DNA of 64,000 bases, from NCBI RefSeq assembly GCF_988243305.1, contig NZ_OZ547137.1, one strand, 5' to 3'. The position numbers and the translations under genes are program-made. Each line of letters opens with the position of its first letter. Position 1 is the stretch's first letter. This document shows, piece by piece, positions 22,934-24,879 of the stretch. The DNA comes from a plasmid. The notes below the pieces were generated by a model that worked only from the letters and a program-made list of their open reading frames with translations, was not told the DNA's origin and did no database searches.

Positions 22934-23402
22934 ACATATTGGTGATGCCTCTAATTAGTTGAATCTGATGTATAATACGGGCTTTTGAGGTTATCTCATG
23001 TCCAGCGTTAATATTCATTGTCCCCGTTGTCAGTCAGCTCAGGTTTACCGCCATGGTCAGACCCCTAAAGGCCGTGACAGATTTCGCTACCGTGACTGCC
23101 ACCGTGTGTTTCAGCTCACTTATACTTATCAAGCACGTAAGCCGGGTATGAAAGAGCTGATAACTGAAATGGCCTTTAATGAGCCAGGAATGATGCTGGC
23201 CCGGATGGCTCGTTTACATGGAATTCAGCCCTGCCAGTTGTTTAAGTGGAAGAAACAATACCTGGAAGGAACTCTCAATGCTGTTGCTGCTGGTGAAGAC
23301 GTTGTTCCTGCTTCTGAACTGGCCGCTGCGATAAAGCAGATTAATCAGGTTCAGCGTTTACTGGGCAAGAATCTATGGTCCCCACCATTTTTGCAACACT
23401 GA
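22934..23402 (+). pseudogene. chimeric IS remnant: IS1-like left end and InsA zinc-finger N-terminus fused to an IS2-like (IS3 family) OrfA
   Basis: ggtgatgcctct...ttttgaggt resembles the IS1 IRL; protein starts [15 protein letters not shown]...[12 protein letters not shown] (IS1 InsA-like), then [35 protein letters not shown] (IS2 InsC-like). Confidence 0.6.
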
Positions 23403-23599
23403 TTTTGATTGATGTTGGCTTGCCTAAATCTATCCGGCGTCATTATGGGCATGGATGCCCGCGCCTCGATGAGTTCCACACCTGATGAGCCCAAAAAACC
23501 ATCCGGCTTCAGTGAGCCATTTTCTTGCTGAGGCTTTTCATCAGGCCGATATGCCGTTCATGTCATCAATAATCAGTCTTCGCAAAACCAGATTGGGAA

Positions 23600-24700
23600 C
23601 TACTTTAATTCATGATTAACCTGCCAGCCAGACTGGCGCCATCGTTACCTTTCGAACACAGTCTGCTGTGTTGTGATTGCCCACGCTATCCGGGCTAATT
23701 TGTTGGCCAGTGCGCAACATACTACGCTGGAGTGTTTTCTTGCCAACAACGCCCTGACCCAATCCGCCAACCTTCCTGACTGATTCTCGATTCTCTGAAT
23801 AAAGGATCTTGCGCACTGAACGAGTAACCGTCGCAGATTTTTATCTCCACGTTTACTTATCCCTAAAAGGGTATTTTTACCACCTGTGCTGTACTGCCGG
23901 GGTACCAGACCGGTTGAAGCAGCAAAGTCCCGACTGCAGCTATATTGTTTACCGTCTCCCAGCTGCGATGACAGTACGCTGGCGGTTATCGGACCAATAC
24001 CGGGTATTGTCTGAAGACGTTGTCCTACCTCATCACGACTCAGTTCCTGCTCCAGTGCGATTTCAAGCTCGGTGATCTGTCCGACAAGGTAAATATAATG
24101 GGCATGTAAGCGCATCAGTAACTGCGCCAGATAGGGAGGAAGTTCGTTCTCTGCAAGTACTGTTGAAAGTCGTTTTACCACTGCGACTCCTGTCGGCATA
24201 CTGATGCCAAATTCCAGCAAAAAAGCATGCATCTGATTGGTCGTTTTGACTTTATCACTGACCAATGATTCCCTGACCCGGTGAAGCGCCCGCATGGCCT
24301 GCTGAGCTTCTGTTCGTGGTTGCACAAATCGCATGGAGGGACGAGATGCCGCTTCGCATATGGCTTCTGCATCGACAAAATCGTTCTTGTTGCTCTTAAC
24401 AAAAGGGCGAACGAACTGCGGAGAAATCAATTTTGCTTCATGACCTAAATCAGCAATCCGGCGAGCCATAAAATGAGCTCCGGCGCAGGCTTCCATCACA
24501 ACGGTAGACGAGGCACAGCCTGCCAGAAACTCAATAAGTTTGGTACGGGTAAACTTTTACGCAGCAATACCTTGCCTGACTTATCTTGGCAGTGAATGTG
24601 AAAGGAATGCTTGCCAAGATCTATACCAATAAGCGTAATGTTTTGCATGATGGTCTTCTCCATGAAAGAAAAACACTCTACTAGGGTACAGCTCACAGGG
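23600..24700 (-). mobile_element. IS110-family element inserted into the IS2-like orfA
   Basis: Transposase N-terminus MQNITLIGIDLGKHSFHIHCQDKSGKVLLRK (24496..24648) and body MEACAGAHFMARRI... (23645..24499) in different frames. Confidence 0.8.
23645..24648 (-). pseudogene. IS110-family transposase, frameshifted near 24500-24540
   Basis: Two overlapping ORFs in different frames together cover a ~330 aa IS110-type transposase. Confidence 0.8.
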
Positions 24701-24837
24701 TGGTGGGGACCATCTCATTAACCATGGAAGTTGAGATCCTCAGGGAAGCAGTGGAGTATGCGCAATCGCAAATGGATAATGTATGTGTCCTTGTTATCTT
24801 CGGACAAGGAATAGCCTCGGTAAGCCGTGTTTTGGGC
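24700..24837 (+). pseudogene. IS2-like orfA 3-prime end and orfB start, continuing after the IS110 insertion
   Basis: TMEVEILREAVEYAQSQ followed by MDNVCVLVIFGQGIASVSRVLG, matching the IS2 InsC end and InsD start pattern. Confidence 0.55.
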
Positions 24838-24879
24838 GATCGAGCAGGAGGCGGGATCATTCCCGCCGTCCTGAGCCTG

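Follow-up and report, generated by a model that had tools for sequence, protein, structure and literature searches.

Immediately downstream of aggR, the 64,000-nucleotide (nt) plasmid stretch analyzed here (the window; contig NZ_OZ547137.1 of assembly GCF_988243305.1) carries an open reading frame (ORF) that begins like the InsA protein of the insertion sequence (IS) IS1 and continues like the OrfA protein of an IS2-type element. This raises the question of whether the frame belongs to a natural IS with a hybrid OrfA or was created by nested insertion and deletion, the two options left by the original prediction. The window derives from a pAA-type virulence plasmid of enteroaggregative Escherichia coli, and the region that follows aggR is an inactive graveyard of ISs, beginning 43 base pairs (bp) past the gene. 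The evidence taken as a whole makes it very likely that the chimeric ORF is a deletion by-product within this pile-up of dead elements, one of which, a member of the IS110 family, would have been directed to its insertion site by a guide RNA. On virulence plasmids, nested ISs, scars left by deletions, and chimeric pseudo-ORFs are common.

The family similarities of the pieces of this scar far exceed chance. Residues 1 to 35 of the 134-residue product match Pfam Zn_ribbon_InsA (E value of 5e-18), residues 42 to 65 match the first 24 positions only of the 46 in HTH_Tnp_IS1 (5e-9), and residues 61 to 122 match positions 20 to 74 of the 75 in HTH_Tnp_1 (PF01527; 2e-8). The NCBIfam models agree, with “IS2 repressor TnpA” (NF006928) at residues 55 to 125 (1e-25) and transpos_IS1 at residues 8 to 95. 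Both helix-turn-helix domains, that of InsA and that of OrfA, are cut at the joint between the two halves, and over its final 10 codons the ORF reads into the end of the IS110-family element (PF01548 plus PF02371) that splits orfA. The predicted succession of an InsA zinc finger, an IS2-type OrfA, and an IS110-family insertion was therefore borne out, and its start at position 22934 was right to within a few bases, 7 bp ahead of the IS1 terminal repeat at 22941.

The left half is the beginning of an iso-IS1. It shows 96.7% DNA identity to bases 1 to 241 of the intact iso-IS1 in plasmid pCFSAN004179G (record L001), from the first base of that element, which is an ordinary 768-bp IS1 with intact copies in 158 plasmids. 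The ATG of the chimeric ORF corresponds to the native insA start, about 57 bp inside the IS1 end. In common with the IS1 family, the fragment has the terminal inverted repeat, the insA start, the zinc ribbon, and the first half of the InsA helix-turn-helix, and its InsA part is 86 to 94% identical in amino acids to IS1N-like and other E. coli IS1 proteins. It differs in that the remaining 527 bp (bases 242 to 768) are missing; since the insA-insB' frameshift site, insB, and the right repeat are gone, the fragment cannot transpose.

The right half derives from the interior of an IS3-family element of the IS2 group. It aligns with positions ∼166 to 355 of the elements L004, L005, and L015, so that the window lacks the left inverted repeat and the initial ∼168 bp, among them the first ∼27 codons of orfA. 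This piece and the orfA continuation beyond the IS110 element correspond to directly adjacent stretches in the uninterrupted elements L004 and L005. Both pieces show 74% DNA identity to IS2 itself, and some of their relatives are labelled ISEc48-like. The helix-turn-helix and coiled-coil regions of OrfA are those of the IS2 group, whereas the split by IS110, the deleted left end, a 2-bp deletion after the insertion site, and the presence of intron and IS200 fragments in place of orfB and the right end set the window copy apart. No IS3-type inverted repeats or orfB were found in the scar, where the IS3-family homology stops at 24838, before orfB.

At the joint itself, the parental sequences are TTTAATG/GTGCC in IS1 and ACTATGG/AGCC in IS3 (the slash marks the breakpoint), against TTTAATGAGCC in the window. 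In longer form, they read …GCCTTTAATG/GTGCC… in IS1, …CAGACTATGG/AGCC… in the IS3-family relatives, and …GCCTTTAATGAGCC… in the window. The simplest explanation is a single illegitimate deletion between neighboring IS1 and IS3-family elements of the same orientation. Such a deletion would have taken out IS1 bases 242 to 768 and any spacer along with ∼168 bp from the IS3 element, a total loss of at least ∼695 bp, and its in-frame outcome has a chance expectation of one in three. An assembly artifact was rejected as the source, as the same joint is found in at least 57 complete genomes. An adjacent deletion mediated by the IS1 transposase was likewise rejected, given that the joint is internal to IS1 and not at an IS1 end. 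The coordinates of the joint and of the other features are collected in Table 1.

Table 1. Features of the aggR-proximal IS scar, in window coordinates
Feature	Position	Strand	Details
aggR, AraC-family activator of enteroaggregative E. coli	22064-22897	+	Intact; labelled aggR in the 100% identical NZ_CP117007.1; Pfam HTH_18, HTH_AraC
Left 241 bp of iso-IS1 (IS1N-related)	22941-23181	+	Terminal inverted repeat, insA start at 22998, InsA codons 1-61
Chimeric ORF	22998-23402	+	134 amino acids; InsA start, then IS2-group OrfA
Deletion joint	23181-23182		In frame; 1 bp (G) common to both sides; window reads TTTAATGAGCC
IS3-family (IS2 group, ISEc48-like) orfA, codons ∼28-91	23182-23371	+	∼90% identity to L004 and L005; 89% to L015
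IS110-family element, IS1111 subgroup, 1348 bp	23372-24719	-	PF01548 + PF02371; ends uncertain by 1 nt (one A/T)
Subterminal inverted repeats of the IS110 element, 13 bp	23375-23387 and 24701-24713		6 nt and 3 nt from the ends, read in transposase orientation
Predicted seekRNA/bridge-RNA target-binding module	23481-23545	-	Downstream of the transposase gene; outer stem and conserved hairpin at 23505-23518
3' guide arm AUGGUUUU (predicted)	23495-23502	-	8 nt; identical to top strand, pairs with bottom strand
5' guide arm GCAAGAAAA (predicted)	23520-23528	-	9 nt; pairs with target top strand
IS110 transposase gene	24648-23645	-	Frameshifted by 1-nt loss in T run at 24555-24558
IS3-family orfA continuation (…KTMEVEILREAVEYAQS…)	24720-24838	+	90% identity to L004; decayed, 2-bp deletion versus relatives
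Group II intron, last 34 nt (domain VI and 3' end)	24839-24872	-	Remainder of the intron gone
IS200C, left ∼340 bp	∼24873-25216	+	Start at ∼24873-24881; matches to IS200C copies (97% identity) begin at 24871-24881; homology ends at 25216

A true nesting, in which IS1 transposed into the IS2-like orfA and was later trimmed by deletions, is unlikely. Nested ISs can indeed be demonstrated in the region, where IS110 lies within IS3 and an intron within IS3. However, what precedes the IS1 left end is the 3' flank of aggR and not IS3, and for this reason IS1 was not simply inserted into orfA. Nesting would therefore need at least two further deletions, one of them ending exactly at the IS1 right end, whereas a single deletion suffices for the fusion. 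Of the predicted combination of nested insertion and deletion, the deletion fusion is thus supported, and a nested IS1 insertion is not needed.

It is also quite improbable that the fusion was followed by co-option of the 134-residue protein, for instance in the role of a small regulator, with expression from the IS1 end beside aggR. The native insA start and the upstream IS1 end are kept, no copy of 100% identity has a broken ORF, every sampled pAA plasmid that includes the region retains the locus, and the zinc ribbon is preserved together with helices 2 and 3 of the OrfA helix-turn-helix. Yet the copies are 99.6 to 100% identical, which points to recent common descent and makes their conservation uninformative on selection. 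Moreover, the C terminus is the read-through into the IS110 end, the NCBI annotation pipeline PGAP calls the pieces pseudogenes, and no promoter-like site rises above the shuffled expectation; in the scan for promoters and terminators, the counts lay at that expectation and were uninformative. The neighboring sequence has also been rearranged repeatedly, with the O104:H4 plasmids diverging at 24686 and other plasmids carrying extra IS insertions.

A natural IS with a genuine hybrid of InsA zinc finger and IS2-type OrfA is extremely improbable, even with one unbroken frame spanning both halves and strong family matches in each, because the sequence left of the joint is that of an ordinary iso-IS1 from its first base, the sequence right of it aligns with the interior of ordinary IS3-family elements, the left ends of which are lacking here, both helix-turn-helix domains are truncated at the joint, there is neither an IS3-type inverted repeat nor orfB, and the combination of PF03811 with PF01527 is confined, among 5.8 billion proteins searched, to clusters that share at least 98% identity with the query and all belong to the pAA lineage. 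Every other protein match in that search covers the IS1 half only or the OrfA half only. Consistent with this, no single known element matched the joined sequence end to end, and the proposal of a natural hybrid OrfA was abandoned in favor of two different ordinary elements.

Besides the deletion, the preferred reading involves the IS110-family element that splits orfA. The subterminal repeats and the long downstream noncoding region of this element are hallmarks of the IS1111 subgroup as described (PMC11187229). In the orientation of the transposase gene, it runs AATGAG-ATGGTCCCCACCA…TGGTGGGGACCAT-AGA, with about 70 nt before the transposase ATG and 273 nt of noncoding sequence after the stop codon. 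The window copy is 99.5% identical to the intact copy of L001, with seven differences that include a 1-nt deletion; because this loss shifts the transposase frame, the window copy is inactive. The intact copy encodes a 334-residue transposase with 72% amino acid identity to IS1328, and the intact homologue matches NCBIfam NF033542 with an E value of 1e-102. This intact copy (L003, equivalent to L001 positions 3001 to 6700, on pCFSAN004179G) lies in another IS3 variant and follows an intact iso-IS1 at a distance of 228 bp. It occurs on plasmids of ∼225 kb in isolates from cattle and food, and also in the chromosomes of strains JNEC-KY171 and 48.

PGAP assigns the element no specific IS name. 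ISSfl8 was considered as a name and rejected, as the ISSfl8-type element sits in a DUF4942 gene, has different guide arms, and matches only in the noncoding right end (85 to 87%); it is a relative and not the same IS. The same noncoding end (23372 to 23601) is 85 to 87% identical to those of the ISSfl8-like and other relatives L006, L007, and L008, and megablast found no match over most of the transposase genes of these three. The two guide arms and a few positions of the stem are the only variable parts of this conserved scaffold. With the IS1111 subgroup, represented by IS1328, ISSfl8, IS4321/IS5075, and ISEc11, the window element shares a DEDD plus PF02371 transposase, the subterminal repeats, the downstream noncoding region, and strict site specificity.

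This specificity was traced by a survey limited to the best 60 of 78 E. coli records containing the element. All 60 carry it at the same orfA left flank, and at least three host IS3 variants are occupied (the pAA type, the L001 type, and the L015 type). The IS110 copies are 98.3 to 99.5% identical across hosts, and the IS3 flanks of these hosts are 80 to 90% identical to those of the window. In uninterrupted relatives, the two flanks are contiguous and read …GGGCAAGAAAACCATGGAAG…. The insertion point falls in the G-K-K-T-M codons of IS2-group orfA, within the target 5'-…CCATGGTT^TTCTTGCCC-3' in element orientation. The A run at this site has five A residues in three occupied sites, four in the empty relatives, and four in the window, which makes any target duplication uncertain by one A/T. 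The recurrence of one site in different hosts indicates an insertion that is site specific and not random.

A candidate for the determinant of this choice is a seekRNA or bridge RNA whose predicted target-binding module lies in the noncoding region downstream of the transposase gene. Its putative 5' arm GCAAGAAAA is followed, 17 nt downstream and across the conserved hairpin GGCUCACUGAAGCC, by the 3' arm AUGGUUUU, and the matches of both arms span the insertion point and overlap each other. In a consensus fold of three sequences, the arms face each other between the outer stem and the conserved hairpin. The seekRNAs of ISEc11, ISPa11, and ISKpn4 likewise have the top-strand match 5' of the bottom-strand match, with the two overlapping (Siddiquee et al. 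2024, PMC11187229), and the window arms follow the same order with the same overlap at the insertion point. With shuffled targets, 9 of 2000 reached an equal summed match length. The 9-mer GCAAGAAAA also recurs by chance in the minus-strand reading at 23735 to 23743, inside the IS110 transposase gene. Short A-rich matches of this kind call for positional and comparative controls, which were applied. A Rfam 15 search of positions 22000 to 27000 at permissive thresholds gave no match to a bridge-RNA family.

The comparison was provided by three relatives that have a common scaffold and different arms, each matching its own site. In the ISSfl8-like remnant L006, which lies within a DUF4942 gene, the arms AGAUGAAAU and GGGGAUUU predicted a missing left flank, and the empty DUF4942 site …GGTGGGGA^TTTCATCT… agrees with the prediction. 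In L007, a copy within a different IS3-family element, the 3' arm GGGUCUUUUU matches 10 nt. In L013, an IS4321/IS5075-like copy in the terminal repeat of a Tn3-family transposon, the arms are AAACGGAAA and AUAUUUU. Cross-comparisons of arms and targets mostly score lower. As a separate observation, the empty ISSfl8-type site (L012 positions 2261 to 2351, …GGTGGGGA^TTTC…) shares an 8-mer with the subterminal repeat of the window element, TGGTGGGGACCAT (23375 to 23387).

IS4321 and IS5075 are known to target the repeats of Tn21-family transposons. The window element differs from this subgroup in its target, the G-K-K-T-M codons of IS2-group orfA, for which no description as an IS1111-type target was found. 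Within the IS110 family, ISEc21 targets the DDE codons of IS3-family transposases (PMC11187229). It is probable that the window element represents an uncharacterized IS1111-subgroup lineage that homes to these orfA codons and forms, with its ISSfl8-like, IS4321/IS5075-like, and third relatives, a natural series in which a conserved scaffold (the outer stem and the GGCUCAYUGAAGCC hairpin) carries swapped arms for four targets. Guidance by seekRNA or bridge RNA is already known; the orfA target and the four-member retargeting series are possibly new.

From these parts, the following course of events can be proposed. An IS2-group IS3-family element would first have come to lie near an iso-IS1 in the same orientation, and an IS1111-subgroup element would then have entered its orfA at the G-K-K-T-M codons, steered by its own guide RNA. 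A group II intron would have inserted further downstream in the IS3 element, after which the bulk of the intron and the remainder of the IS3 element may have been lost to IS200C and further deletions. Finally, an illegitimate deletion would have placed orfA, from codon ∼28 on, in frame after insA codon 61, and the scar would have been carried passively in the pAA lineage through linkage to aggR.

Several points weigh against this account. None of 721 matching plasmids covers both the aggR 3' end and a full iso-IS1, the two parts of the ancestral plasmid, and consequently the deletion is deduced from the types of the parental elements and not from a sampled precursor. The closest arrangement is that of L001, which runs in the order of the window from an intact IS1 through a 228-bp spacer to IS3::IS110. 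It was nevertheless rejected as a direct ancestor, as its IS3 flanks are only ∼80% identical to those of the window though its IS110 copy is 99.5% identical, and it is best regarded as an analogue. The chimeric ORF, intact and with the native insA start codon, may be expressed. The order of events we infer from the present arrangement only. With respect to the guide, the 5' arm of L007 carries one mismatch, and the proposal that an RNA from the downstream noncoding region explains the choice of site draws on complementarity and on the three-sequence fold.

Beyond the IS110 element, the remaining pieces follow the predicted succession. OrfA homology resumes as had been proposed, at 24720 and not at 24700, the latter being an artifact of ORF calling inside the IS110 left end, and the intron-like fragment and the IS200 that were foreseen after it are the end of a group II intron and a truncated IS200C, respectively. 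The intron fragment has 94% matches, in single copy, in ∼900 E. coli genomes, beside reverse transcriptase genes. In the homologue L009, the equivalent stretch lies at the 3' end of a match to Rfam Intron_gpII (RF00029, domains V and VI; 2502 to 2573, minus strand), which identifies the fragment as the final 34 nt of a reverse-oriented group II intron. In the window itself, the Rfam search described above gave no group II intron match and retrieved only STnc490 and ALIL. The fragment abuts IS3-family sequence, as do E. coli group II introns resident in ISs, and differs from these in having neither domain V nor a reverse transcriptase.

In the adjoining IS200C, STnc490, the 5' hairpin region of IS200, was found at 24893 to 25017 (140 bits), and the Pfam family Y1_Tnp matches at positions 2 to 55 of 121 only, corresponding to the N-terminal part of tnpA. 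The truncated IS200C is directly joined to a piece (25213 to 25583) of a sitA-like gene for the binding protein of a Mn/Fe ABC transporter. Further on, a Rfam match to the ALIL pseudoknot (25916 to 26014, 81 bits) marks the frameshift element of another partial IS3-family transposase.

On a wider scale, positions 22900 to 25000 are 100% identical to plasmid p140_MLI109 (NZ_CP117007.1) and 99.6 to 99.9% identical to ∼30 other complete plasmids, and the genes aap and aar lie upstream of aggR. In the RefSeq annotation of NZ_CP117007.1, aggR is followed by successive pseudogenes. The first three are transposases, namely a partial one of the IS1 family, a partial one labelled “transposase,” and a frameshifted one of the IS110 family; after these come a partial IS200 tnpA, a sitA-like fragment, and a partial transposase of the IS3 family together with the ALIL pseudoknot. 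In the pAA plasmids of O104:H4, the match to the window ends at 24686, within the left end of IS110, and in NZ_JBXHCV010000003.1 it extends no further than 23576, with IS200 thereafter. The scar thus continues to undergo rearrangement in different pAA lineages. A search of the literature on aggR, IS110, and pAA retrieved nothing specific to this locus.

The scar is an ordinary, already annotated, inactive IS remnant of little importance. It illustrates that IS pile-ups near virulence regulators yield intact-looking chimeric ORFs, which should not be annotated as genes, and the locus may serve as a lineage marker for pAA plasmids. The natural swapping of guide arms among four relatives with four targets could inform the design of programmable seekRNA or bridge-RNA recombinases, although the principle of guide-arm retargeting has already been published.

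Just past the scar, on the minus strand (26890 to 28461), the window carries an intact idi gene for isopentenyl-diphosphate isomerase together with a gene for a class 1 isoprenoid biosynthesis enzyme, an unusual cargo for a virulence plasmid.

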